A stretch of DNA of 64,000 bases from a virus. The stretch covers positions 7,964 to 71,963 of the IMG/VR virus record IMGVR_UViG_3300010167_000860; one strand, 5' to 3'. Positions 3,401 to 63,999 of the stretch are shown here, piece after piece (within the stretch, counting starts at the first letter, position 1; the number at the start of each line of letters is the position of its first letter). A model generated the notes under the pieces. The model did not search any database and was not told the origin of the DNA. It worked only from the letters and a program-made list of their open reading frames with translations. Made by a program: the position numbers and the translations under genes.

Positions 3401-3571
3401 ATAAAAAAAATAATAATTCAGTCAAATATAAAATTTTCTGTTAGATTACATAATCAATTAAAATAATAAAATAGAAATTAAACTTTCCTAAATCCTTTAT
3501 TTTAAATTCAAGTATCAAATTTATTCTTTTACTTTTGTAATGAATTTAATTAATATTTTATGAAAAAAAGT

Positions 3572-7945: not shown

Positions 7946-8167
7946 TTATAATGTATTTATTAACTCTTGTTTTGTTCTAAATAGATTTTCTTCACGAAAA
8001 CCAGCAATAGTAAGACCATATATATGAAAACAAACTTCTGATTTTACATTTAAAAAATATAAAACTTTATCATCACTATCTAAAAAAATACCTGTAATAA
8101 TATCTTTTTTAATCCCATCTTCAGTTATACGAAATACCTCATCATATAAATTATACTTGTTTTTCAT
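7946..8167 (-). CDS. Hypothetical protein
   Basis: ORF track; resembles the short phage family pattern of 27404..27628 (F-x-I-x-E/D-E-V-F...LF-x-T-x-E-E). Confidence 0.55.
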   Translation of the reverse strand: MKNKYNLYDEVFRITEDGIKKDIITGIFLDSDDKVLYFLNVKSEVCFHIYGLTIAGFREENLFRTKQELINTL

Positions 8168-39047: not shown

Positions 39048-39497
39048 ATGGTAGAAAAAATAAAATGGGAATCCATAGATATAGAGAAGGAAATTTTCTT
39101 TGAAACAGGTTTATCTCTTATCAAGATAAATATATATGATAAAGATTATTTATTTCTTGTAGATACAGGGGCTAATGATTGTATCATAGATACAGATGCT
39201 GTAAAAGAATTAGGTCCTAATATAGAACTTGTAGAAACTGATAATATGTTAAAAGGATTTGAAAGTAATATGCAATTAAAAGAGGTAAATATTCCTGTTA
39301 AAGTAGCTAATATTGATGAAACAATGCTTTTTAGTGTGTTAAGTCTTGATAATATTAATGAATATTTTAATGAAAAAAATGGAGTAATCACCGGTATAAT
39401 AGGCAGTAATTTTCTTAGATATTTTGCATTAATTATTGATTTTCATCAGTTAAAACTATGGTATCCTGTTAAATATATGGAAGAAGAAGATTTATGA
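39048..39497 (+). CDS. Retropepsin-like aspartyl protease
   Basis: FLVDTGA and GIIGSNFL. Confidence 0.8.
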   Translation: MVEKIKWESIDIEKEIFFETGLSLIKINIYDKDYLFLVDTGANDCIIDTDAVKELGPNIELVETDNMLKGFESNMQLKEVNIPVKVANIDETMLFSVLSLDNINEYFNEKNGVITGIIGSNFLRYFALIIDFHQLKLWYPVKYMEEEDL

Positions 39498-43327: not shown

Positions 43328-43744
43328 ATGTTAGGAAAAATATTAGTTCTACAAGGAAATGTAGCAAGTGGAAAAACTTCTTTTGCTAAAACTTTAGTAA
43401 CAAAAGATACTTCTTATATAAGAGTAAACAGAGATGACATTAGAAATATGTTTAGAACTGTATGGCAAATGAAGGATGAGGAACTTGTTAAAGAAGTTGA
43501 GAAAAGTATAGTAAAAAAGGCTATACACTATGATTATAACATAGTTATTGATGATGTAAATCTTAATCCTGAAACCTGTGATATGTGGAAGGGTTTAGCT
43601 AAAGAACTTGGTTGTGCTATAGAATTTAAGTTTATACAGTGTCCTTTAAAAGAATGTATAAGAAGAGATGCTTTAAGAACTCCCTCAGTAGGAGAAAAAG
43701 TTATAATGAATTTGTATAGTAAATATTTAAAAATGAAGTTATGA
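43328..43744 (+). CDS. AAA_33 / polynucleotide-kinase-like P-loop protein
   Basis: LQGNVASGKTS, RVNRDDIR, VIDDVNL, CIRRD. Confidence 0.85.
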   Translation: MLGKILVLQGNVASGKTSFAKTLVTKDTSYIRVNRDDIRNMFRTVWQMKDEELVKEVEKSIVKKAIHYDYNIVIDDVNLNPETCDMWKGLAKELGCAIEFKFIQCPLKECIRRDALRTPSVGEKVIMNLYSKYLKMKL

Positions 43745-45459: not shown

Positions 45460-45992
45460 AAAAGAAAAAAATATGATGTCTGAACTATCTGCAAGTGTAT
45501 TTATAGACAAATACAAACCTATATGTAATAACAGGTTTCCTACATTTAACACTATATTACCCCTAAATCATCCCTTACAGCCTTATGTATGGGATAAAAG
45601 AGAGAAATTTCTTATATCTGAATATATACCTAACAGGTGTTTCTTTAGTGTTGTCCTTTCTCCTGATAAAGAGGGGTATTATAAAGTAATTCCCAGCAGT
45701 ATTCCTTCATTAGGAATAGCTTGGATAATTACAGAGTGTGCTTGGAGACCTGAAAGTAAAGAATATGTTGAATTTAATTTAGAATAATATGGCTACTAAT
45801 AGGAATAAAGAATATAAAGAATATAAAAAAGTATTAGAATCTATGAATTTTAATATGTGTGAAAGTGAGTTTCATTATGAATTAAATAAATTTTTATTAA
45901 CAAATTCAAATATTAAAATTGAACATATCATTGAACATGGGAAATACAATATTACTTTAATTTATTCATATTTAAAAGAAGTAGAAAAATGA
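45452..45992 (+). CDS. Two hypothetical proteins (45452-45787, 45789-45992)
   Basis: ORF track. Confidence 0.5.
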
Positions 45993-46873
45993 AATTAATA
46001 AAACCAAGCGTAGAAATTTTAAAAAACTACTTAGAACAAGTAGATTATATACCTGCTAAAGAAGAGGTTTTAAATAATATATTTCAACAAATAGAAGTAG
46101 CAGGCAGAACCTGTTTCAAGTCTGAAGATAAGATAACAGAAGATTCTTCAAAAGCATTTGTACGGATGCTTATTAAAAAAGGTGATTTAAGTTTGTTAGA
46201 ACAGGGGACTGTTTACCTTAAAGTTCCTGCTGGAAATTTAGATTTGTATCATAAATATATAGGTAATAAATATTCAATATTAAATCTGGATGATTGTTTA
46301 GCTGGAAAACAAGGATATTATGCTGTTACAACTAATTATCGAGTTCTTGTAAAGAACAATTGGTTAGATGATTTACAGTATCTTTGTGAACCAACTGAAC
46401 ACCATGAAAAAAGAGTATCTGTTAGATTTATTTGTGATAGAGGCACAATGACAGAATTTTTAAGACATAGAACTTTTAGTTTTGTAATAGAAGATATAAA
46501 CAATCTTAATAGCAGAGAATTAACCTTTATTTTACCAATGTGGTGTAAAAAAGAAGAAGGTTCATATAATAGAATGTCAGATGGTTATATAGCAGGGTTA
46601 TATAGATATTATTCATCTGATAAAGATATAGCATTTATAAAAGCTTTAATCTCTGTTGAGGAATACTATTATAATTTACTTAAATATGATAACCAACAAG
46701 CAAAGGTTGTATTACCTAATGCTTTAAAAACTGAAGTTATTATGACAGGATACTTATCTGACTGGAAAAAGTTCTTTGAGAAAAGAACTATTTCTGATAA
46801 TCATCCACAAATGTTACAACTTACTATTCCTTTACAGGAAGCATTTAAAGGGAATGGATATATAAATAATTAA
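45989..46873 (+). CDS. thyX: Flavin-dependent thymidylate synthase ThyX (Thy1)
   Basis: IEVAGRTCFKS, EFLRHRTFS, AKVVLPNALKTEVIMTG, HPQM. Confidence 0.85.
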   Translation: MKLIKPSVEILKNYLEQVDYIPAKEEVLNNIFQQIEVAGRTCFKSEDKITEDSSKAFVRMLIKKGDLSLLEQGTVYLKVPAGNLDLYHKYIGNKYSILNLDDCLAGKQGYYAVTTNYRVLVKNNWLDDLQYLCEPTEHHEKRVSVRFICDRGTMTEFLRHRTFSFVIEDINNLNSRELTFILPMWCKKEEGSYNRMSDGYIAGLYRYYSSDKDIAFIKALISVEEYYYNLLKYDNQQAKVVLPNALKTEVIMTGYLSDWKKFFEKRTISDNHPQMLQLTIPLQEAFKGNGYINN

Positions 46874-46883
46874 ATAAAATAAA

Positions 46884-47570
46884 ATGAGAAATTACAGTTT
46901 AGTAAAAGACGGAGTTATCTTAAAAAATAATGTAAAAAGATACTTTGAGCAGATATATAATTTAATGGAAACTAATGAAGAGTTTCCTGTGGATTTTGAA
47001 TTAGTGTACTTTTTAGTATATGCTAATAAACAAAATGCAGTAAGAGAATTAAGGAATAATTTTATACAAGACATTGATTATCAAATTTCCATCCTTAATG
47101 ATGGAAATATGGTAGGCAGAAGAACAGAAAATTATAAACTTTCTGTACCTTGTATGGAACATTTTATAGCAAGGAAAGTTCCTGAAGTATTTGAAGTTTA
47201 TAGACAAGTATTTCATCAAAAAGTTGAGGAGATAAAACAGGAAGTAAAACCTTCTATTAATAATGATGTTATAAGTGCATTAGAGTTATTTCTTGATGCT
47301 ATAAAAAACCACAATATCAGGATAGGAAAGTTAGAAGATGATGTTGATGATCTAAAAAATGCAAGATTTACAGATTATTCAGCAGTAACAGAATATGCTA
47401 AGAAAAATAACATTTTAGGGATAGATACAGGCACTTTTAGAAGATTAGGGATAGATGCTTCTAAAATATGCAAAGAGAGAGGAATAGAGGTTAAAAAGGC
47501 TAAATTTGCTAATGCTTATCCTGAAAGTATATGCAAAGAGGTATTTAGAAATAAAAGCCTTGCTGCTTAA
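46884..47570 (+). CDS. Antirepressor-like (AntA/B-type) DNA-binding protein
   Basis: EEFPVDFELVYFLVY...AVRELRNNFIQDIDYQ...YKLSVPCME, then coiled coil. Confidence 0.6.
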   Translation: MRNYSLVKDGVILKNNVKRYFEQIYNLMETNEEFPVDFELVYFLVYANKQNAVRELRNNFIQDIDYQISILNDGNMVGRRTENYKLSVPCMEHFIARKVPEVFEVYRQVFHQKVEEIKQEVKPSINNDVISALELFLDAIKNHNIRIGKLEDDVDDLKNARFTDYSAVTEYAKKNNILGIDTGTFRRLGIDASKICKERGIEVKKAKFANAYPESICKEVFRNKSLAA

Positions 47571-47573
47571 CTT

Positions 47574-48359
47574 ATGTTGAAAGTAAAGAAATACAAAAAA
47601 TTTGCAAATGGTATAGTATGGTGTTTAGAACTTGAAGATGGTAGATTAATAGAAACTACAAGTACTTTTTTACCATACTATACTAAAGATGCAATTAACA
47701 GAAAACAGAATACTCTTAATAATACATCATTAGGAGATTATTCTGAAAGATGGATGATAGGAGTATCTGTAATGTCAGGGTGTCCTGTAAAATGTAAATT
47801 TTGTGCTACAGGGCAAATGAAGGGCTATAGAAATCTTACTTCTGAGGAAATTGTTTCTCAAGTTACTTTTGCCGTTGAGGAAATAAAAAGTAATCCCTAT
47901 GACGCCAAAGAGTTTAAAATTAACTATACAAGAATGGGAGAACCCTTTCTTAATATAGAGAATGTTAAACAAGCTATAAAACAGATTACCAATGTTTATC
48001 CTCATACCCATCATTATATTTCAACAATAGGTATAAAGAAATCTGATTTTTGGTTTATACAGGATAATATTACTTTACAATTATCTTTACACAGTTTAGG
48101 TGAAGAACATAGAAATTGGTTAATTCCTTATAAGAATAAAATGACTATAAAGGAGTTAGGAGAAATAAAAACAAAATCTAATCTAAAAACTACTTTAAAT
48201 TTAACATTAGTTGAAGAAAAAGATTTTGACATTAACAGATTAAAAGAAAATTTCTCTCCTGATAATTTCTTTGTAAAGATTAGCCCTATAAATCCAAATG
48301 TAATATCAAAGAAAAATAAATTAGGCAATGGAATAATAGATAGTATAAATTTAATTTAA
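47574..48359 (+). CDS. RlmN/Cfr-like radical SAM enzyme core (C-terminally truncated)
   Basis: SGCPVKCKFCATG, RNLTSEEIVSQV, RMGEP, ISTIG, SLHS; lacks the AACGQL tail. Confidence 0.85.
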   Translation: MLKVKKYKKFANGIVWCLELEDGRLIETTSTFLPYYTKDAINRKQNTLNNTSLGDYSERWMIGVSVMSGCPVKCKFCATGQMKGYRNLTSEEIVSQVTFAVEEIKSNPYDAKEFKINYTRMGEPFLNIENVKQAIKQITNVYPHTHHYISTIGIKKSDFWFIQDNITLQLSLHSLGEEHRNWLIPYKNKMTIKELGEIKTKSNLKTTLNLTLVEEKDFDINRLKENFSPDNFFVKISPINPNVISKKNKLGNGIIDSINLI

Positions 48360-48370
48360 AAATCAATCTT

Positions 48371-48496
48371 ATGACAGAAGTGATTAAAAACCAATTAGAA
48401 GAAGCAGGTTATGAGTATGCAGTTGCAGTAGCCACTCAAAGTGAAGTGGAAAATGGAGCAGCATGTGGACAATTGTCTATTATAACTGAAGAGTAG
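48371..48496 (+). CDS. 41-aa peptide carrying the RlmN C-terminal AACGQL motif
   Basis: MTEVIKNQLEEAGYEYAVAVATQSEVENGAACGQLSIITEE*; own ATG 11 nt after the upstream stop, different frame. Confidence 0.8.
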   Translation: MTEVIKNQLEEAGYEYAVAVATQSEVENGAACGQLSIITEE

Positions 48497-48502
48497 TAAT
48501 TA

Positions 48503-48545
48503 AAAAGGAAATTACATTAATTTGTAGTTTCCTTACTTTTTTTTA
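48503..48545 (+). terminator. Intrinsic terminator closing the rightward block
   Basis: AAGGAAATTACA/TGTAGTTTCCTT stem plus T-tract. Confidence 0.75.
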
Positions 48546-49571: not shown

Positions 49572-52500
49572 TTAAAATACTCCTTTATTAATAACATTTA
49601 TCCTTTCTTTAGGATCTGCTATTACATCTATCATTCTTACACCAGGTATTACTCCTGAAGCTGATCTCCATAATTTATTTTTACCTGTATGTCTTCCTCT
49701 TTCTACTTCATCTGCCCAATTCCAAGGAGTTACTAATCTTGTTCCAAAGGTCATTACATTCTCTAAATAAGTAGTTGCTGCAACAGGGGCTTTAAAAGTT
49801 TTTCAGTTATAACTTAACAATTGATGGTTAGGTATAACAGAACCTAATTCATTCTTAGTCCTAAGTATCCCCAAAGTAAGCATATTTAATCCCCAATTAT
49901 CATCATCATCATCTCCTCCTCCCTTTAAATTTAATAAAACCATAGTTAATATTGAAGCTGAAATTAATCCTATAATATCTACCATAGTTCTTATCATATT
50001 AGCCTTTTCTTCATCTGACAGGTTTGAGTATAAATCTGCAAATTCTTTAGATTTTCAAGCCTTAGCAGCTTGTCTTAAAAATGTTCTGTAAAACCCTTCA
50101 GTTACAGCATCAAGATTATAATCATAATTAGCTTGTTGCCATCTCCTATTTATCATTTGAGGTACAATATGCTTTTTAAACATAAAGAATAATTTAGCAA
50201 GAGCATTTCTTTGTGCCATAGCCATATCATCTTTATTATATATACCATTTAATCTTTGGTATACTGCTAAGGATTTTCTTGAAAATTTTCCCACATCTGC
50301 GTCATTAAATGCTGTGCCATCGGTTTTAGTATAACCTTTCTTAATAACCAATCTTGCTATATTTCCTGTTTCTACTACTTCCATAGCATCTCATAAGTTA
50401 GTCTCCTTTCCATTAGGATCTATCATTTTGTAATTATAAGCTAATGCAAGCCCTATTTCATTATAAGCAGAATGTTCCCCCATATTATTAAACATATACA
50501 TAGTATCAGCGTCTAAAGCCCTTCCTAATTTAGTTTTTCTGTGCATTTCAAATCCTCTTATCCTATTCTCCTGATCTTGCATAATATTAAATTTCTCTGA
50601 GAATAAGCTTAGTTTATTTTTCTTAACCCTGTTACCAAGTTCTTTTAATACGTAGGGAAGGTTTTTAGTGTAAGTAACTTTTGCATCTTTTATATTAGTC
50701 TTACTAAAGAACTGCCCTGAAAATCCTTCTATCCACATCTGAAATCTATTATTTAATGAGTTAGATATACCTGCTGGGAAGTTAAAAGCCATACCATTTA
50801 AAGATACTATTGTGCCTAATGCACCTAAAGCTTTATTAATAGGAACATCTTTTTTCCCTATTTTCATAACTCCAGCATCTTTTATATACTTTCCATATAC
50901 CTGAGCCTCTATATATTCATCAAATTTTGTTAATAAATTTGAAGCTAATACCTCAACAGTACCATCTTTATTTATAGTGTCTTTCCCATATTTAATCTTT
51001 TCAACTAACTTTTTATTACCTCTTGTAGCATTTATTTTATATTTATTCACTAAAACATCTCTTAATACTGATAAAGAGCTAACTACTTTAGTCATTTCAC
51101 TAAAATTATTAGCCATATTAGCATATACTATCATTGAAGAGGTTAAGTCTGTAGAAAGTTGTGAAGTATCTTTTATTCTGTTAGTATAATAAACAGGCAA
51201 TATATTTAGGGGCTTATTATCAAATCCTAAAGATATATTACTCTTATTACCCATTTCATCTTCTGTTTCCCTCATAAGGAAAGTGTCCCCTAAAGATGAT
51301 TTTAACTCTCCTAATAACCCTTTAGCCCCTGTTACTCCCTTTAGCCTCTCTATAAAACTTTTCCTTATTTGAGGAGCTTTAAATACACTTGTTGCTATAG
51401 CTAAATCTCCTTTATAATCTCCTTCAGTATAAGTTCTGTCTATTAACCTGTCCATAGGGAGTTTTTTATCTAATCTTCTTTTTTCATTTATTATAGTATC
51501 ATAATATCTCTTTTGGGCAGTATTTAAAGCCTCATATTCAGGATTACTATAAACAGACCTTTTAGGAACACTATAACCATTAATCTTTTCAGAATTTGCT
51601 AAATGTCATTCTCTTCATAATTTCTTTATTTCAGGCAGTTTATCAGGATCATTAGGGTACATATTTTTTAACCTTTCCCTTTCTATGTAATAATTTTGCC
51701 AGTAAGTTTCATAATCTCTATCCTGTAATAAATTACCTGTTTTTTCCCCTTCTTTATTTTCATACATAAAATCAGTATTTTTTATACCTGATTGTTCTAA
51801 TTCTATGTGAGCATCTGTAAATATCTTACTATCTTCAGTAGTAAGTAATCTTGCATTATCTTTATTAGTCCTTACTATCTGATCTACAGTTCTTAACATT
51901 AGATTATTACTGTTAGCCATAGAGTATATTCAAGTATCCATAAATGTAATATCTGAAAAACTTTCTTTTATTAATTCCTGAAGAGTAACTTCTTTACCTT
52001 TAAAATCTACTATCCTTCTATCTCCAAAGAAAGGTTTAAATAATTGTTCTGTTAAAGGTAATCCATTTCTTATATATTCCCTTTCTAATTTATTCATAGC
52101 ATCTAAAATACTTGTAGAGCCTTTATAAATCCTTTGTTCTATAACACCTGTATCACCTTCATATAAATCAATTAATCTTTCTACTAAAGGTCTATAAGCC
52201 TCTATATATGTTTTACCATCTAAAAGAACTTTAGCTACATCATTAACTTCCTTTCCAGGAACTCCATTCTCTATTTCAAGATTATTTCAATCTTCTTTAA
52301 GTATCTTTAAATCCCTTCAGGCTTCTTTTAATACATCTAAATTTCCATCTAATATTTCTCCTTTATCTAACCTTTTTCTTATAGCTTCCCTTCTTCTATT
52401 TTCCTCCTTAGATAGTCCAACATTTCTTTCCTTCCAATTTTTATTTATAATAGATAATCTTTTAACTGTAGCTTCTTTTCACTCTTCTAACACTGTTTTA

Positions 52501-55500
52501 GCATCATCTATCTCAGTATTTAATTTATATAACATATCATCATCAATGATATTATCAGGATTTAATTTAAGAAAATACTTACCATCTAATATTGAAGTAG
52601 CAAGTTTAGAGAACATTTTATCAGCTTTTAATAATTTTTTATCATATTCTGAAACATTTACTTTCTCAACTTTTCTTTTAAATATGTTCTTAACTCTTTC
52701 AATAAAACTTTGTAAGATACTTAACTTAGGCTTAGCAACATTATCCATTCTTAACTGTATCTGCTGTACTATAGACCTTCCTATCATCTTACCTATAGCT
52801 TCCCTAAGCATTAAATCCTGCCTGTCATTATATCTCTTTTTATATTCTTCATACTTCCCTTCTCCTTCTACATTAAAAACTGCTTCCATCACATCTTTAT
52901 TAGCAGCAAGATAATCACTTAACCTACCCATTATCTTTTCATTTCTTAAAGCAGCTTCTATAAAGTGTCCAAATTCTTCAGGTAAAGCAAAATCCCCTTT
53001 TATACCTTTAGCAACTCTTATTAAATTACCAATATCTTTAGCAACATTACTTAATACTGAAGGGTCAAATACTCCTGTTATACCTTTCCTTTCCTCAAGT
53101 TCTGTTAATGCTCCTATAGGAATACCTGCCTGTTCTAATAACCTTTCTATCTCTGACCTTATTTGTTTGTATAATGCTTCTCTTTCTTTTGTATTTTGAT
53201 TATTATTATCTGTGCCTAAACTATATAATTGTTTATTTTCTGTTTGATTATCTATATCTTCAGCCTTAACATTACTTAACCCTGTCTCATTTAAAATAGA
53301 TATTCCTACTTTTTTTAAAGTATCTATATCACTTTCCTTTTCCTCTATACCACCTTCATAGTGATATGGGTCATATTCTTCTTTATAAGCATCAAAACTA
53401 CTTTTTTCTTCCCCCCTTTCTAATAAATAAGGATTTTCTGAGTAAAATTTAATAGGATATTCTCTTTTATATCCTGTACCATCAAAAGAATAATAAGCAT
53501 TACTATCGCCAAAAGGATTAGGATAGGCTAAAGGTACAGAAACAAAGTATCCATAAGGATTTTCTCTTGTATTAATTACATCTTTACCTGCTACCATTCC
53601 TTTATATACAGTATTATCTCCTTCAATAGGAGCAAAAACACTATTAACTAAATCTTTATTATCAAGATTTCTTAGTATAAACTGTTTTCAAAATCCCCAA
53701 TCTTCATTATTATTTCCCCCTGTTAAATCTCCTTCTTTACTTTCAAAGTGATTATCTGCTCATTGTTGTATTCTTCTTAGATAATTTATATATTCAGGCA
53801 TTGCTTCTTTAACAAGACTTGGTATAAGATGTGCAAAGGATTTAGCTTCAAAATTAAATCCTGATTTATAAAATGTATATACTGCAAGGTCTATTGCTAA
53901 TTGTTTATAATCATCATCATATAATAACTGTTCCCACTCCCTCATAACAACATTAACATCCTCAGTAGATAGTTTACCTGCATTATTAAATACTATACCT
54001 TCCTTTTTATCAAATTTTAAAGACTTAAATAATTTTAGATTAGCTAAATAATCATCATTTTCTCTTAGCTCTTTAAATAGTTTAGGAAACTCTTTTATAA
54101 ACATATCTCTTTGATTACTATCTCTTAATTCTAAAAGACTATCAAATGCAGAATCCCTTTGAAGTTCCATATAATATTCAAATATATTCTGATATATCTT
54201 ATTTATAGTTTGTGGACTCAATTTATTTCTTCTACTAGCTTTTATTAATCTATTCACAACACTTTGAAAAGATGTAGATAATTGAGGGAATAATACTTCT
54301 TCTCCTACTTTATTTAATACATTCTTTGTACTTTCTAATCCTAAGGTATAAAACCCTTGTAAGAATTTAAGAGGAGCATTATTTAATTTTTCTCTTAGTA
54401 TATCTTTATTTTCATTAAAATTCTCAGCAGTTATTCCTTTTGTTAAATTATCCTCATCTAAAAATAATTCCCTTACACCTGATAAAGGATACCATTCCTC
54501 TGTACTATCTGATTTTATCTTATCTATTTTATTAAGATTACTTATAGTATCTGCTATTTTAGGTCCTGAAGGTATAGTATCCACTTTTAATAATGCTGAT
54601 AAATCTCTTATAGCTTCCCCTGCTTTAAGCATCTCTGCAAAATTATTTGCTACTTCTATCTGAAAAGCAAGATGATCTACAAGGGATTCTGTAGATAAAG
54701 TTTTTAATCCTTTTTTATATTGAGTTATACTTCTTTCTAATTCATTGATAGTTAAAAGTGATCCTTCTTTAGAGGACTTTTCTACTCCACTTTTAACTAA
54801 AGTATCTTTTATATATTTTTCTGTTTTACTTATAAGTTGTTTTATAATAGTATCTTTATCAGGGTATAATTCCTGTCCTGCTATTTTAGTAAATTCTTTT
54901 ATTACAGGCTGATTTAAAAATAATCCTATCTCTTCTCAACTATACCCTGTTCTTGCTAATAATGCTGCTACATTAACAGTATTTAAGTCCACATTTAAAC
55001 TTAAAAATACAGGCTCTTTTACTGCATCTACTGAAGCAGCTAAAGGCTCAGAAACATTTCTTGCTGTAAAACTATTTTCACTTGATAAATTTGTTAAAGA
55101 TTTTCCATTAAGCACATAATTACTTTTTACAGTTACATTATGTTGTTGTAAAATTGCGTGAGAAGTATTATGATTAGCTCATATTCCTATTAAATGAGTT
55201 GCAGCAGCATTTTGATTATGTAAAAATATTTGTGTGGAAGGTAATGTTATATCTAAATCTGTTTCAGGAGTTCCGTTTAACTCATCCATTTCCTTAGCTA
55301 CCCTTTTCATAGTATCAAATCCACCAGGTGTAAACATATCCACAGCAGCCTTAGGATGTGTTAATACTGCCCACATTATATCTTTTAATTGATTATCCCT
55401 TTGTGCTAAAGTTAAATCTTTTACAGGAGTATGAGAAGAATAAGGTATAACTTCATATTTACCTGTATCATAATTTAATTGCATAGTAGGTAATATAATA

Positions 55501-58500
55501 TATTCTTTATCTATATCAAAGTCTAACCCTGCTATATTAGTTATTTCAGTAGGAAGTTGTAGGTTACTGCCCCCATTTTGAGGTAAAAATTCTACTATCT
55601 TTATGGGTATCATAGAATATTTATTTTCTGTAGGTATTCTATAACCTATAATCTTTCTTGCCTCATCTGATAGAATACTAATATCTAATATACCTGTTTT
55701 TTTATAATCATCAAGCATCTTTCTTTCAGTAGGATGTAGGTCCTGACCTTCCATATACTTTCTAATAAATTCCATAGAATGAAATGGCAACCTCCCTTCA
55801 AAATAATCTAATGAACCATCCTCTTTAAATACTATCCTTAAATCATCTTTTAAATCAGATTTCATCCCTCAATCTGTAAAGTTTACTGCTGAGCCTCCTG
55901 TAATTTTTTGTTTAGTTACAGTCTTTTTAATAACAGAAGTTAGTAGTTGTTGAAATTTTACTGATCTTAATGGTTCATAAGAAGGTATAGAAAATCTTTT
56001 CTTTATTATAGCATCTCCTTTCTCACCATTTTCATTATACTCATATCCTGCAATATAATCTTCTAATTCTATAGCTTTTAATCAATCATTATCATACCTT
56101 GCATTACTCCTTATTTCTCTAACAAGCATATTATATACACTCTCTACATCTTTAAAGTCATTTAACAGGTTTTCAAAAGAAGTAAGCAAGTTTTCATTTA
56201 TTAGTTCTGTATATCTTTGTAATAATTCATCTTTTGTTGTTTTTTTACCATTTATTTCAAAATCAAATATATCATCAGCAGAAAAGTTACTTATTAATAA
56301 CTTTCTTAACTGTGTTCCTACCAAAGATGTAGTATCTATTAAATGTTCAGGTACAGGTTGCTGTATTTTATAATATTCATAAGGAAATTCTTGCATTTTC
56401 CCTTGTTCTAATGCTTCAGATAAGATATTATAAGCTCCTTCTGAGGTTGTTGTATTGTTTAAATCTATTTTACTATGCCCTCCTACTTTAACTGCACTCT
56501 CAAATAATATTAAATCTATGTCATTCTTTGTCATAAATTCATACATACCATTTAACTTACTGTCTTTATCATTAACATTGGGTAATAATATCATTTCAGA
56601 ATCCTTATGTTGTGTAGAAGTTCTTATATATTGAGTATCCCCATTATTATCCTTATGAGATACTACAGGTACATTTCCATAAGAGAAGGGTTTAAAATTC
56701 TGATATACTATATTATAATCATTAAAATCTCAATCTCCCTTTTTAATATTAAGATATGCTGTAAATATAGCATCATTCATTTGTCCTGCCATAGTAATAA
56801 TCTGTACAGCAGAATCTAAAGTTCTGTAAGCTCCTCCATCTGTCCTGTTTATATTTTCATAAGTAGCTAATACTCTTTGTCCTTCTTCATTGAAATTACC
56901 ATTTTTATCAACTAAATTTTTATTTTGTTTTAATATATTTTTAATCTGGTTATATGATGAACTTTTAACTTTCTTTTCATCATTTATTATCATAGTATTT
57001 TGGACTTTCTTTGAAACACTGTGTCCCCCTGGAAATATATTACCAACCTCTTCTCCTCTATAAAAAAACCTTGCTTCAGTATCTAAATGTTCCCCTGGGG
57101 AGTATATTTGTTTAAATCTCTTATTAAAGTCTTTGGTAGATTTAAAAAAGGCTAAATCTCCTATTGTAATATTTACAATATTTTGAATAAACAAGGAATT
57201 ATTTCAGAAATAATTCTCTAACAGGTTATTAACCTGTTCTCTTGATAATCCTGATAATGCAGGTATTTTCTCTAAATGTTTGTATTTATCCTTTTTATAT
57301 TCACTCTTATCAAATAACCCTAGAGTTTCATAGTTTGCTAATTCTGATTGGAATAACTTATCCATATTTTCAGAGATAATATTCTCTAACTCTGCATTAA
57401 ACATTTCCTCTTTACCTTCAAACTCTCCTATAACAAATCTATCAAATAAACCTTTATTATTTTCAGTATTATATTGTCCATTAAGATATGGAAAATGTAA
57501 AAATTTATCACCTCTTGTATCAAAATTATCTATAAAAGGTTTCCTTACTTCAACTAACTGTATTCTTTTAAACTCTGCAATAGCAGCATTTTTTAATTTC
57601 TCAACAATAATATCTTTATAATAATTTACACTCTTTTCATTCATATTATTGTATCTTACAAACTTTACTCCTGCAAAGGTCATACTATTACTCATTACAG
57701 GTAATGTATAAGTACTAACATTATCTCCGGAAAAGAAGTTTATTAACTGTGGGATAACATAATTTACATTAGACTGATTATCATTCTCTATACTATCATA
57801 ATGAAGTAATTCTTCAAATTCAAGCATATCTCTATATTTCTTACTTTCCTTTCATAATAAATCATCATATTCCTTTTGTAGTTCTTCTACTCTGTAAGTA
57901 TCTATAAATCCTGAATCATCAGGTAATTGTGCTTCTTCTAACTCTGAAAGTTTATCTGCAAATTTTTCCCTAATCTCTGTAGATTTCCCTGTTAGTAAGT
58001 TAAGATATTCATTATAAAACTGGTCTGTTTCTTCATTATAATAAGCATCTCCATATTTTAAAAACTCTTCTTTTATAAATTCTTGAAACCTTTCCCTACC
58101 ACCAATCTTATTATTAAATCTTTTAAATAAATCTGATAAATAAGAAGTGTATCTATAAGAACTATATCCAGCTCCTAATTCATGTACAAAATCATCAGTT
58201 ACATCATAATTAACTTTATCAAATAACCTTGCTATTTTACTATATGCTCCTGAATTATCACTAACTAATTTTTCAGGAGTTTTTATTTGAGTATCAGATT
58301 TATTAGGAATAATTGAAGATGATATTCCCATTATTGATGTTAATATAATAGATATATTTTTTTCATCTGAAGATAATACTTCCTCAAGGTCTTTTGTAGT
58401 ATGACTTACACCTATACTTTTTAGTAAGGTAGATATATTTTCAGAATTTTCTATAGCATATTCTATTATCTTACTTGGATTTTTAATCTTACTTATATTA

Positions 58501-59720
58501 GTGATGTGGTTTTCAGCAAACATAATAACCTCTGTAGCATTATAAGTATTTAATCCTTCAGCATTATATATAGAAGTACCTTCATTTAAAACAATAGGTT
58601 CTTCTCCTGTAATATTATCCCCCCATTCTGATACTAATCCTCTTTGAAAATCTGATACATTTACATTTATTTTGTTATACTGTTTTGTCTTTTTATCTAG
58701 TTTTATAACACTAAAATTTGTAAAGGCTTTATTAAAATGCCTAAAAAACTGTATTTTAAGATGAGGATTATCTTCTAATTTTTCTATTAACTCTTCTGCC
58801 CATAAATTATTATTATCCTTTAATAACCCTTTTAACAGCATAATAATATCACCCTGCTTTTCTACACTCTTTAAAGTTCTTAATATTGTCTTTTTTACAT
58901 CAGAGGCATCTACTTTTCTATGATAACCTAAAAAGTTAGTAGAATTTGCTGTTTCCTGTTCCCCTGTTTCTTTATTTACTTTTACTTCTTTTTCTTTTAA
59001 TCCAAATAAAACCCTTTTAATTTCTGAGGGTAAATCTGCTAATGCTGATATTTGTCTGTAATTTATTTGCCATCCTTCTTTAGCCTTTTCCTCAGGAGTA
59101 TAATAATCTTCAGCCATATCTTCTAATTCTGATACTCCAAAATCATTCTCCATTGAATTTAATACTTCTAATATATCTCCATTATAAACATCAAATTCAA
59201 ATCCTTCTATAGCTTTAAAAGTGGACATAGCATTTTGCATAAGTCCATAGAAATTATCTAATATCATCCCAAAATTACTTGCTTTTTCTATATTTCCTGC
59301 TTGTTCTGCTTTATTCTTTTCATTGGTAAAGACTGTAACTATATGCTTGTATATATTGTCAAGATTATTATTCTTATTTTTTAATGACATAATATACTCC
59401 TTACTATCTCATATACCTGCTTTATTCTTTTCCATTTCTATACTTTTATAGAACATATCTAATATCATATCAGATAAATGATGTAATGTTACAGGATCAT
59501 ATACCATTCTTACTTTATTTAAAGCAGGAATATCATTAAATTCTTGTATTAATTCCTCTAACCTTTCTTTTGTAGGGACAGTTTCATTGTTTAGTATAAA
59601 TAAAGTTCAGGCTTTATTTACAGCCTCTTCTGTATTTATAGGATTACCCTTATCATCTTTTTCTGAAAGAGTGTTTACTAAGTCTTTTCACTCTTTACTA
59701 TTTATTACTGGACATTTCAT
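49572..59720 (-). CDS. Giant virion-associated RNA polymerase (~3,382 aa; TGA=Trp)
   Basis: Twelve track ORFs share one frame and are separated only by TGA; start MKCPVINSKE-W-KDLV; catalytic GLDFDIDK (DFDID at 55509-55523), GYRIPTE, LAASVDAVKEP, GDLAFFK. Confidence 0.9.
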
Positions 59721-59727
59721 ATATTTA

Positions 59728-62700
59728 TTATTTTGGGTTACAATCTTCTTTTTTAGTTTCTCTTGTAAATTCTTCTTTTTTATCCATCTCTTCTAAGGAT
59801 TTTTCAAATGTAAATTCTTCCTGAGATTTACCTTTATTAACTTTAAATATTTGTTTTCTTCCTCCTTCTTTTGTTGCAGAACTAAATCCTTCATATTTTG
59901 TAGATTTAGCAGGACTTGGTTTTTCAGATATATCTTCTCCAAGAAATTCCTCAACACTAATTTGAGATTCTGCTTGTTGTTGCTTACTTTGTTGTTCTAA
60001 AGCAGCAAGTTCAGCATCATACTTAGCATTAATTTCAGAATTAATAGTATTTAAAAGAACTTGTTCATCCTTTGAAAGGGTAATTATAGGAGCAGTTTTT
60101 ATTTTTTCTGTAAGAAGTTTTTGTCTTTCAAATTCCTCTTGTCTCCTCCTCTCAATATCTGCTTTCTGTTGTTCTAAAGTTGGTTGTTCTTTAGATTCTA
60201 TTTTATTAACTCCTTTCTTAACAGGCTTACCTGCTTTATCTTTTAAAAAAGCATCCATAGCTCCATTACTTTTTGTTTTAACTCCCTGTTCATTATATTG
60301 ATTACCTTGTTTATCTTCATAAGCAGCCTCATTAAGATTACCTTCATCATCAAATAATGTAACTTTTGGTTTTTCAACAATAGATTTAGGATCTTGTAAC
60401 CCTGCTTTATTATATATTATTTTTCTATTACCATCATTAGCCTCTGAATATACTGTAGTTCTACCTGTTGCAGCAGTTGAATAGATATTACCCTTATCAG
60501 TAACTATATAATCAGTGCTATTATGTTCTACAATCTTATAATTTCCTTGTACTGTAATATCTTTATTATCTTTTAAAGGAGTTCCTGGTAATCTTTCTCC
60601 ATTATCATCTATTAATTGTAATCTTCCTGCTGCATTAACTCTTCTTACTAATGCCTTTTTTCCTTTATAATTTATTACAGAGCCTGCTTTTAATGTTTTA
60701 TCCTTTGAGTTAAAAGATTTTACTACAGGAGTTTCTTTTTTATCAGAAGTTTCTTTTATAGCCCCTGTTTTAGTTAAAAATTCCCTTGTCTTTGTACCTT
60801 TAGGAGTTACTTTATTTCCTAAAGAACTTTCAGTATTATTTCCCATAGGATTTCTTACAGTAACTTGTTTTACCTCAGGTGTTTTTCCTATTATATTTCC
60901 CTTCTCATCTAAAGGATTAAGTACATAATTTATTCCGTGAACAGCAGGACTACTGATATTAGTGCTTAATATTCCTGATTCTATTAATTTAATTACATAA
61001 TCTTGTCTTTTTAACTCATCTTTTCCTATTGAAAAGCCTATGTCTATATTTCTTACTTTTGTATCTCCTTTTCTGGTAAAATACTCATATAAATTATCTA
61101 ACAAATAAGCATTTAACTCATTATTTTCTCTTCTTACCAACACCTTAGCCTTTTCTACTCATTTATGATTATCATCAAGTCCTTTTATGGTTAACCTTCA
61201 CTCTCCATCTATTTCAACAAAATTTGCCCTATGATTTGCATTATTACCTATCCTAAAATAATTATTTAATTTTGATAATATTGACCTAAAATCTGTCTCA
61301 ACTTCTTTTGCATCCCTATTAACATTTATATTCTCTAAACTATGTGCAAAATCTCTTAATGCAAGTAATGCTTCCTCAACAAATGTAGGATTTTCCATAA
61401 CTTCTCCATTAAATATCTGCTCTTTTCTACCTATTAATTGAGTACTTAATTCACTTAATTTTTGTACTCTTACTGCTAAAGGCATAAATTCTCCTTTACC
61501 CCCTCTTAATCCTAAGTATAATCTGCCTGCAATATCTTTAAAATTTTGTCAGGTTTCATTATCCCTCATCTTATTAAACCTTGTATTAAGAGATATGCCA
61601 AAACTAATTCTACTGGGTATATATTTTTTCCCTGTTTTTTCATTAATCTTAACAAGATCAAGAGAATTTAAATCTGTTTCTTCTTCAGTAAATTTAACCT
61701 GACCATTCTTTACAAACTGTACAGTAGTTTTTTCTTTGGATACTCAAACAGGAGTATCCTTTACATAAGTTGTAGTATTAGTTATTGCACTTTCTTCTTT
61801 CTCCTTAGCCTCTTTATTATCCTTATACTCTTTAATTACTCTATCTCTTAAAGCCTGTACATTAGCCATTCCTGATAAAGTATCTATAGGTTGATATTTA
61901 TTTCCTCTTTTTACTGCCATAAATATAGCATCAGATTCCTTTATTTCAGGTTTAGAAGTAGATTGATATTCAGGTCAGATTATAAAATAAACCTCATCTC
62001 CTGCCTTTACACTATTATTATCTCTAACTGCTTTAGCTCCTTCATTTTCTAAAAAATTATCAGTAGAACTTAAAGGCTTATCTTCTAATTGCCTGTTTCT
62101 TACTACATATCCTGTTAAATTTGCAGTGCCTAAATAATTATCCTTATCATTTACAGTGTATAATTCTGTTTGTTTTTCTTCAAAAGCACTATTTTCTTTA
62201 GTAACATCCCCAAAATTATTTGCAGGGTCTCCTTCAATTATTTCCCTACCATCCTTAGTAAGGGGAGCTATGTTTTTACCATCCTTATCTATACCTGTAG
62301 CAGCAGTCCTAATCTTTTTATTAACAGTATTAAAGAATTTCTTTAATGCTTCTATATCTTCTTTTGACATATTTTTAGGAATTTCCTTATCTTTAAGATA
62401 CCCAAGTATATCATCAAATAAACCATTATCTAATCTATCCTTTAAAATAGATTTTGCAAGATCTCTTATAGCAGGAGTTGTAGTTACTGTTCTCCCTACT
62501 TCATTAAATTTATCAACTTTTTCTTTTCTATCTAAATACTTTTTTACAAAAGGATTATCTGCTGTTACTTTTAAGATATTATCTCTTTTATCTTCAGGGA
62601 GTTTGTTTATTTCACTAAGTACTTCTTCATATTTTTTAGTATTGGATATAGCATTAACAAATCCTACAGCCTCTGCTATATCTTTTAATTCTTTTACAGC

Positions 62701-63999
62701 CTGTTCTTTCTGTATAGTTTCCTTTTCTATTTCTTCAGGATTACCAAGAAATTTATTATATTTTTCAGCAAACCTTGTACTTAATCCTTTTAACATTAGA
62801 TTATTAGCAAGTGCTTTTTTAAATTTATCAGTTTCCGTAGGATTACTTTTCTTTAATAAAGCATTAAAATTTACTTTATCTTCCTTAGGCATTGTAGATA
62901 ATATATTTATAAGCTCACTTGCAGGAGTTTTTAATAACTCTTCAAAGGTTATAGTTTTACCTTCTCTTTGTTCTTTAAGTTCTTTACTCTTTTCATCCTC
63001 TACAAGTTCTTCAGTATAATATCTAAATTTTTGTAACTTTGTTTTATCATCTTTAGGGCTTGTCTTACTTAATACCTCATCTATCTCTGTAAGCCCATTA
63101 GCATATTCTGTATCTATATTTCTTAATTGTGTTGCTAAAAAAGTAAGGCTTTCTAATCCCTTTTGGTCAAATTTATCTCCAACCATTTCCCTGAGATTAT
63201 TAGATATGTCAAGAAAATTTGTATATTTCTTTTTTATACCCTCAAGATTTTTCTTATGTTTTAATAGAATTGCCTCATTACTCAATCCTTTAAATGGATT
63301 TATATTCTTACCCTCCACAGTTATACCCATAACCTCTTTTAAATCCTCTACTATATCATTTATCATCTCTACATTATTAGGAGAGGATAATGCCTTATTT
63401 ACACTTTCTAACTCTATATCTATTGTATCTAAAATATCATCTAATTTATCAGCCTTATTAAAAGTAATAAACATATTAATAAGGCTTTCTGTTTGAGCAT
63501 TATCATATTTTATTTTATCATCCTCTATTATAGCATCTCTTTCCTTGTCAGTAAGTTCTCTATTAGTAGTAAGAAAATCAGCATATATTTTCCTTATATT
63601 CTTTTTATCAAAAGTATTTAATTCTTTAGTAACACTTTCTAAGGCTTTATTATCATAATATCTATCTACAGCTTCTCCTATAACACCTCCTTGTCAAGTT
63701 AATCCTGTACCTCCTTTTCTATTCCTACCAACAGTAACTACCCCTCCTGCCCCTATAACAGCTCCAAAAAATCCTTCTTCTCAATGTTCAGGATTAGTAA
63801 AAGTCTCTTCATAGCTTTTTAATATACTATTTCATAAGCTATAAGTCTCATCTCTTTTATCAGGATCTACATATCCTAAATAAATACTATCATTTACATA
63901 ATCCTTTGCAGCCATAGATACAGCATTTTGTCCCATCTCTTCTCACATACCTTCAGAAAGTGCATTTTTAATAATAGTATAAGCCCCTTGTCCTATATA
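59728..63999 (-). CDS. Large virion cargo / ejection protein (partial; TGA=Trp)
   Basis: Track ORFs 59728..61143, 61198..61485 and 61975..63474 share one frame open to the window end; SEGM-W-EEMGQ, EH-W-EEGFFGAVIG, LT-W-QGG; adjacent to the vRNAP gene. Confidence 0.8.

Follow-up and report, generated by a model that had tools for sequence, protein, structure and literature searches.

A naturally split, single-cysteine relative of RlmN that probably acts as one two-subunit enzyme in crAss-like and other phages

In a 64,000-nucleotide stretch of the genome of a crAss-like gut phage (IMG/VR record IMGVR_UViG_3300010167_000860, positions 7,964 to 71,963; hereafter the window), two neighboring plus-strand genes encode a radical S-adenosylmethionine (SAM) protein related to RlmN and Cfr, which we call the core, and a 41-aa peptide carrying the cysteine loop that RlmN bears at its own C-terminus. 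We propose that core and peptide probably constitute a single heterodimeric enzyme, which is related to the class A radical SAM methylases and is naturally split, with one cysteine in place of two. Its target is likelier to be of the nucleotide or nicotinamide adenine dinucleotide (NAD) type than RNA, and its peptide is likelier to be a stable subunit than a consumable. To our knowledge, class A radical SAM methylases comprise only two known enzymes, RlmN and Cfr, both of them single chains with two cysteines and RNA targets. The elements of the pair are the following.

47574-48359, plus strand: core subunit gene, RlmN/Cfr-like radical SAM protein of 261 aa, open reading frame (ORF) ending in TAA
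47760-47762, plus strand: codon of Gly63, which stands where RlmN has Cys118 and precedes the first cluster cysteine by seven residues (HMMER alignments to 4pl1 and 6fz6)
47781-47804, plus strand: CxxxCxxC motif (C70-x3-C74-x2-C77), read from the sequence, which binds the radical SAM [4Fe-4S] cluster
48360-48370, plus strand: spacer of 11 nt between the core TAA and the peptide ATG
48371-48496, plus strand: peptide subunit gene, ORF of 41 aa with the motif GAACGQL, in the -1 frame relative to the core
48464-48466, plus strand: codon of peptide Cys32, equivalent of the methyl-carrier Cys355 of RlmN

By its sequence matches and its predicted fold, the core is an RlmN-type radical SAM protein, not an RlmN itself. 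Its best NCBIfam match is the RlmN profile TIGR00048 (E 6e-21), with 74.8 bits against a cut-off of 290, and this match spans positions 100-244 of 355, the middle of the profile only; the Cfr profile TIGR04432 gives 50.2 bits against a cut-off of 550. Pfam returns Radical_SAM (28.7 bits, cut-off 29.5) and Fer4_12, both below threshold, and nothing else; the RlmN_N domain (PF21016), which Pfam does find in the true RlmN P0269, gives no match in the core. The sole match in PHROGs is phrog_24834, whose function is not annotated. When the PDB was searched with the core sequence, RlmN and Cfr were the only matching structures (~1e-10). An AlphaFold model of the core, built from 46 sequences with a mean predicted local distance difference test score (pLDDT) of 91.6, superimposes on residues 79-349 of E. 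coli RlmN (3RF9) over 233 residues with a VIA-align Z of 23.6 and a root-mean-square deviation of 2.7 A. Cfr reaches a Z of 16.7, all unrelated radical SAM folds remain at or below 12.5, and Foldseek gives an E of 5.8e-12 for the core model against RlmN. Because the structural alignment covers RlmN 79-349, the core lacks both the N-terminal domain (RlmN residues 1-78) and the C-terminal tail. The columns of C70, C74 and C77 are invariant in both of our homologue alignments (A1 and A2). Opposite RlmN residue 118, HMMER places Gly63, with ERWMIGVSVMSGC in the phage against DRATLAVSSQVGC in 4pl1 (a C118A chain) and DRTTVCVSCQVGC in 6fz6. The core therefore departs from RlmN and Cfr in four defining features: it scores below the family cut-offs, has no N-terminal domain, does not carry the Cys355 loop in cis and lacks Cys118.

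The small partner has no match in Pfam, NCBIfam or PHROGs. It is strongly acidic, with an isoelectric point (pI) of 4.05, and every peptide found has Cys32. When the peptides were made into a profile and run against a 282-protein set, it matched single-chain relatives in their C-terminal tails, where expected (E 4e-6 to 1e-4), for example at residues 288-315 of 347 in P0209 and residues 214-244 of 259 in P0162. Judged by this homology, the peptide corresponds to the part of single-chain RlmN-like enzymes that comprises the final helix, beta-strand and Cys loop. It is better conserved than the core, with for instance 70% versus 46% identity to the window. The original prediction had aligned the core with RlmN so that Gly occupies the place of Cys118, and had located the AACGQL motif on a separate 41-aa ORF in another frame; both readings are borne out, the former by the alignments to RlmN structures and the latter by the -1 frame of the peptide gene.

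The likeness to known enzymes, and its limits, can be stated residue by residue. RlmN (PDB 3RF9, 3RFA, 5HR7; TIGR00048), the C2-methyltransferase of 23S rRNA A2503 and tRNA A37, shares with the phage pair the core fold, the CxxxCxxC motif and an N-terminal beta extension, and its Cys355-bearing tail corresponds to the helix, strand and AACGQL loop of the peptide. The phage system differs in that the Cys loop lies on a separate 41-aa polypeptide, Gly replaces Cys118, residues 1-78 (RlmN_N) are absent and the core has an extra insert at residues 34-58; identity is ~22%, and the genomic context is one of phage replication and nucleotide genes. Cfr (PDB 9P0P; TIGR04432), the C8-methyltransferase of 23S rRNA A2503, has the same class A architecture and two-SAM logic. 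It is a weaker match than RlmN, carries C105 and C338 on one chain and possesses the N-terminal domain, and nothing here suggests a role in antibiotic resistance for the phage pair.

That the split is genuine follows from its conservation. A word-indexed search returned 3991 core homologues, nearly all of 260-262 aa and ending in G[IV]NL[IV]; the few longer ones differ by N-terminal extensions alone, which stem from other start calls. The peptide gene lies beside the core in 104 of 108 viral loci and, at a core identity of at least 41%, in 45 of 46 genome loci, the latter including isolates of Bacteroides congonensis, Segatella copri and Lepagella muris as well as metagenome-assembled genomes (MAGs) labelled Clostridia, Bacilli, candidate phyla radiation (CPR) bacteria and DPANN archaea. 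Relative to the core the peptide occurs in frames 0, +1 and -1, spacer length varies, and the gap ranges from 9 nt to 1.2 kb, the widest placing the peptide gene downstream; in two loci (L135, L145) the peptide gene lies upstream of the core, and in an Ounavirinae-type lineage a protein of 81-94 aa, encoded one or two genes downstream, has the peptide as its C-terminal portion. At locus L001 the peptide gene has its own ribosome-binding site, AAGGAGGA. Since the stop position is shared, the peptide gene is retained, all frames occur, and order and distance vary, the split represents two conserved genes, and it is strongly supported that the pair is a mobile two-gene cassette carried by many unrelated phages. 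The homologues are thus not single full-length proteins, a point on which the original prediction had depended.

It is extremely improbable that the split is only apparent, whether as a local frameshift lesion or sequencing error or through a programmed -1 frameshift that would join both parts into one protein. The window does offer a starting point for the last idea: the peptide is read in the -1 frame with respect to the core, and the 5-codon overlap contains, in frame, a slippery-type heptamer, A_AAT_TTA (48346-48352), where a -1 slip would fuse the two. Among relatives, however, the stop position is identical across thousands of homologues, which together with the conserved peptide gene rules out an error or lesion. 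Programmed frameshifting is ruled out as well, since the frame relation takes all three values, the genes can be separated by up to 1.2 kb or stand in reverse order, the L001 peptide gene has a ribosome-binding site to itself, and an equivalent heptamer is absent from L005 and from L113, a locus of the commonest arrangement. Such heptamers are moreover frequent in this AT-rich phage (65 of 7062 codons, 0.9%), five of them in the core gene alone.

Two lines of evidence indicate that core and peptide belong together. Natural fusions occur in both orders: the peptide precedes the core in P0126 (seen in two sequencing runs) and P0152 (46 member sequences), and follows it in P0209, P0243, L155, L157 and L161. 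P0152 unites peptide, core and a second radical SAM domain in a single chain; a search from P0152 for further multidomain fusions returned solely its own small family. In addition, a co-fold of the two proteins of the window gave an ipSAE of 0.76 against 0.00 for the best of three controls, a value reached by 51 of 78 solved complexes and by 2 of 108 mismatched pairs, which supports binding between them. The confident contacts join peptide residues 5-21 and 36-38 with core residues 205-238 and 7-27, a modelled pattern that is as expected for strand complementation.

The gene content also brings to mind a maturation system in which the peptide itself would be the product, either a precursor resembling a peptide made by the ribosome and modified after translation (RiPP) or a peptide-derived cofactor, modified by the core and, where present, by a second radical SAM enzyme and a methyltransferase. 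A small peptide accompanied by one or two radical SAM enzymes and a methyltransferase is indeed a RiPP-cluster-like gene set, and pyrroloquinoline quinone (PQQ) and mycofactocin are peptide-derived cofactors made by radical SAM enzymes. We nevertheless consider this explanation highly unlikely. The peptide shares homology with the C-terminal tail of the enzyme itself, and some relatives carry it fused to the core; its sequence is nearly invariant from end to end, without the conserved leader and variable core of a precursor; and it is predicted to complete the beta-sheet of the core. The core, for its part, has no SPASM, twitch or RiPP recognition element (RRE) domain and no additional conserved cysteines that could serve an auxiliary cluster.

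The second departure from RlmN is the missing resolving cysteine. The residue seven positions before the first cluster cysteine is Gly in 119 of 119 close homologues and Gly or Ala in divergent members, and the core family conserves no cysteine beyond the three of the cluster. Two candidates for a replacement were considered and rejected. Cys17 is found in 110 of the 119 close homologues, and the co-fold places it in contact with the peptide; divergent members have Ala, His, Leu, Ser or Val instead, which disqualifies it as the resolving residue of the family. A second peptide cysteine near the C-terminus (..IICE) is lineage-specific. The possibility raised at the outset that another cysteine takes over from Cys118 accordingly finds no conserved candidate.

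A tree of 89 representatives, obtained by a quick search and with moderate support values, separates three groups. The first has Cys118 and a fused tail, and contains true RlmN and Cfr plus a short group; the second has a fused tail and Ile, Asn or Val at position 118; in the third, Cys118 is wholly absent, and it holds the family of the window, two single-chain members with Thr118 and a group that has neither cysteine. On this tree, the loss of the resolving cysteine is family-wide and appears to predate the split. One member of the second group comes from a cellular contig of 1.25 Mb, where it shares an operon with a gene of the isochorismatase family and a flavin adenine dinucleotide (FAD) oxidoreductase. 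The related short clades, for which there are no informative names (tails with IGSNCGQ or IGGGCGQL, or an end with GFxYAxRN), resemble the phage cores in lacking RlmN_N and, in several cases, Cys118; they differ in that their tails are fused or absent and that some carry NUDIX, HD or isochorismatase domains.

Two observations concern these relatives. The sister group within the third group (14 representatives, among them P0170, P0182, P0192 and P0200) consists of proteins of 260-287 aa that end after the tail beta-strand, ..GFxYAxRN, and lack the equivalents of both Cys118 and Cys355; no separate Cys peptide was found for it on the short contigs available. P0124 (601 aa; fragments P0171, P0174, P0188) carries an intein-like insert of ~340 residues with homing-endonuclease-like sequence, which splits the CxxxCxxC motif just before the third cluster cysteine.

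What the absence of Cys118 means in RlmN is known from mutants, which accumulate a stable protein-RNA cross-link because this cysteine is needed to resolve the adduct (PMC9692996); C118A RlmN has been crystallised cross-linked to tRNA (titles of PDB 5HR6 and 5HR7). The trapping mutants, C118A or C118S (PDB 4PL1, 5HR6, 5HR7), lack the resolving cysteine just as the phage family does naturally. They are, however, laboratory variants of a single-chain RNA enzyme, catalytically dead and bearing a stable RNA cross-link, whereas in the phage family the loss is ancient, common to whole clades and under purifying selection.

From this precedent the original prediction had derived a peptide-RNA cross-linker, in which the peptide would be a consumable co-substrate whose bridge is never resolved and which is left, through Cys-S-CH2, on an adenosine of host rRNA or tRNA, for a takeover of translation or for a tRNA modification relevant to the phage's code switch. 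By analogy with the mutants the proposed chemistry is coherent, and three of its foundations hold: the split is genuine and conserved, Gly is invariant at the Cys118 position of the family with no other cysteine conserved, and the mutant cross-links are published. A detachable cysteine carrier would also let the core be reused and would explain why the split has been retained. Several points nonetheless make this outcome distinctly unlikely. The RNA-binding N-terminal domain is absent, and the complex has an acidic character, with a near-neutral core (mean pI 7.9) and a strongly acidic peptide. In the natural fusions (P0126, P0152, P0209/P0243, L155/L157/L161) the whole enzyme would become the adduct. 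The clades without Cys118 are large and old, and at least one of their members is a cellular enzyme encoded in a metabolic operon; the genomic context, in turn, is one of nucleotide and NAD metabolism, not of translation.

Two parts of that proposal concern tRNA and the genetic code. The window does show recoding: its minus-strand late genes (49572-63999) are open only if TGA is read as sense, in one frame of 3406 codons (49572-59792) and a second, at 59728-63999, of 1423 codons or more, TAG recoding changes almost nothing in them, and the plus-strand early genes are normal under table 11. Yet phages of Pectobacterium, Yersinia and Moorella, as well as lambdoid prophage-like elements, carry the cassette without signs of recoding, so a link to the code switch is unlikely. 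Linkage to tRNA genes was likewise rejected, as there are none in the window and none in 30 other loci scanned, and a single lineage (L005/L041) is flanked by them. In this lambdoid prophage-like lineage, a tRNA-Met gene and an odd tRNA-like gene, for which ARAGORN gives a four-base anticodon (catc), lie at 2476-2549 and 3929-4009 in L005 and at 3479-3552 and 4932-5012 in L041.

Returning to the heterodimeric enzyme, we propose the following sequence of events. The core, corresponding to RlmN 79-349, would hold the [4Fe-4S] cluster and the SAM site. The peptide, translated separately, is predicted to dock by helix and beta-strand complementation onto the core's last strand and its N-terminal sheet, and would thereby supply in trans the Cys loop that RlmN carries at its own C-terminus. 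If the chemistry is that of RlmN, one SAM would S-methylate the peptide cysteine, and the 5'-deoxyadenosyl radical from a second SAM would turn this methyl group into a methylene radical, which could then add to an sp2 carbon of an N-heteroaromatic ring. Without Cys118, resolution of the adduct could make use of another base, could concern a substrate that needs no deprotonation, or might not occur. In fold and in these first steps, the system thus probably works like a class A radical SAM methylase.

The surroundings of the pair bear on the target. In the window, the pair closes a plus-strand block of replication and nucleotide genes, which includes the following features.

at 39494: family A DNA polymerase
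at 43328: AAA_33 kinase
45989-46873: thymidylate synthase ThyX (Thy1), adjoining the cassette block
at 46884: gene for 228 aa with no assigned function
48505-48542, plus strand: terminator-like hairpin (12-bp stem) followed by T8, found by a scan, which closes the operon right after the peptide gene

The scan yielded two sites combining a hairpin with a T-run, compared with 0.4 expected in shuffled sequence. ThyX also adjoins the cassette, in a different order, in L172 (6965-7603), where the core is 47% identical to that of the window. In another locus, an Ounavirinae-like contig (L171, 7520-10175), the genes that come after the cassette are TerC and two copies of TerD.

A wider survey clustered the neighboring genes of 156 loci, whose cores represent 31 lineages at 85% identity. 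A small class I methyltransferase is the commonest partner (7 of the 31 lineages), nearly always accompanied by a second radical SAM gene, and both usually stand between core and peptide. The main cluster of second radical SAM genes, found in six lineages, is MoaA/viperin-like; MoaA and viperin families act on nucleoside triphosphates. Examples of this four-gene variant, with a MoaA/viperin-like radical SAM protein of 255-265 aa and a methyltransferase of ~150 aa, are L009 (3780-4968) and L124 (5789-7004); it recurs in L115, L121-L131, L133, L136, L138 and L149, and its carriers are crAss-like phages and MAG contigs with the label Clostridia, Bacilli or Tenericutes. Three second radical SAM genes from different lineages are not orthologous to one another.

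Genes of NAD salvage lie within 3.5 kb of the pair in 8 of the 31 lineages by raw count, usually in the same operon and in differing orders. They comprise a fusion of nicotinamidase and nicotinate phosphoribosyltransferase (NAPRTase), NAD synthase (NadE), nicotinamide mononucleotide (NMN) adenylyltransferase, alone or fused to Nudix (NadM-Nudix), NAD kinase, Nudix and NrtR, and were seen in the core flanks of L131, L133, L145, L146, L148, L151, L152, L153 and L154. Other short RlmN-like proteins are fused to a NUDIX domain (P0175), to an HD/HD_assoc domain of the deoxynucleoside triphosphatase type (P0226) or to isochorismatase (P0199), which hints that the short clades act on free nucleotides. 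Together, the NAD operons and the domain fusions suggest a new lead on the substrate.

Because the RNA-binding domain is missing, and in view of the NAD operons, the MoaA/viperin-like partners, the domain fusions and ThyX, we favor a substrate that is a nucleotide or is related to NAD. On this context, 23S rRNA or tRNA would be a less likely target than a nucleotide of the adenine or pyridine type or an NAD-related metabolite, and the peptide would more likely be a stably bound subunit than a consumable. By inference from RlmN, radical addition to an electron-poor N-heteroaromatic carbon would suit an adenine or a pyridine ring.

The same observations can be set against the simplest alternative, that of an ordinary catalytic RNA C-methyltransferase in two pieces, which would make m2A or m8A at a tRNA or rRNA site of the phage's choosing and in which another residue or water would stand in for Cys118. 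The closest characterised relatives all methylate RNA adenosines, and RtcB and the AAA_33 kinase, typical of RNA repair, are found near some copies. We still regard this alternative as unlikely: the N-terminal domain is absent, the score lies far under the RlmN and Cfr cut-offs (74.8 against 290 bits for RlmN), context and domain fusions point to small nucleotides, and an RlmN is already present in nearly all bacteria.

A further alternative turns the trapped intermediate into the purpose of the system. The pair might be a natural radical SAM peptide-nucleotide ligase, in which the acidic peptide would be used stoichiometrically and joined through Cys-S-CH2 to the base of an RNA adenosine or of a nucleotide of the NAD or ADP-ribose type, the conjugate being the functional product. 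To this, too, we assign a low probability. If it were true, the conjugate could serve, for example, as a decoy or inhibitor of NAD-consuming defence enzymes, or as a block on host RNA.

Several points weigh against the split enzyme with a nucleotide or NAD-type target that we prefer. Loss of C118 in RlmN or of C105 in Cfr abolishes turnover (PMC9692996), and a catalytic single-cysteine mechanism is therefore without precedent. The association with NAD genes, besides being such a raw count, comes in several cases from MAG contigs whose viral or cellular origin is uncertain. In the genome of the window, no NMNAT-type (PF01467), NAD synthase (PF02540) or NUDIX (PF00293) match was found (NAPRTase was not searched for), nor any homologue of the second radical SAM gene or the methyltransferase; because these are absent there, the cassette must work alone in this phage. 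The clades are defined by the quick, moderately supported tree described above. Finally, the co-fold places the Cys loop with low confidence (partner pLDDT ~60), and its success may owe something to the intact RlmN fold having been memorised by the model.

The cassette occurs in crAss-like phages of the human gut, in Bacteroidales prophages and in cultured phages of Bacteroides, Pectobacterium, Yersinia, Vibrio and Moorella. In GenBank its proteins are called hypothetical in Kehishuvirus 'tikkala' (WEU69814, WEU69813), Pectobacterium phages Wc4-1 (QFP94031, QFP94033), Arno18 and Arno162, Moorella phage MTATph1 and Vibrio phage D479; the gene of Yersinia phage P778 is labelled generically as a radical SAM protein. 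Loci from cultured phages include L175 (OQ198717, 3483-4405) and L174 (MN270892, 5004-6347). Our literature search turned up neither an account of an RlmN-like enzyme that is split or lacks Cys118 nor one of a radical SAM partner in phage NAD pathways. The cultured carriers, among them Kehishuvirus 'tikkala' on Bacteroides cellulosilyticus and FelixO1-like phages of Pectobacterium and Yersinia, are ready experimental systems.

Collectively, this family, which is abundant with thousands of sequences, breaks three rules of class A radical SAM methylases: the carrier cysteine resides on a separate peptide, the resolving cysteine is absent, and the context leads away from RNA toward nucleotide and NAD metabolism. 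Its two-piece design provides a ready tool for trapping and studying the methylene-bridged intermediate. Once known, its reaction will show either how a class A enzyme can turn over with a single cysteine or how a trapped intermediate is put to use as a product, and it may uncover a novel nucleotide modification in phages or a new participant in the contest over NAD+ between phages and bacterial defences.

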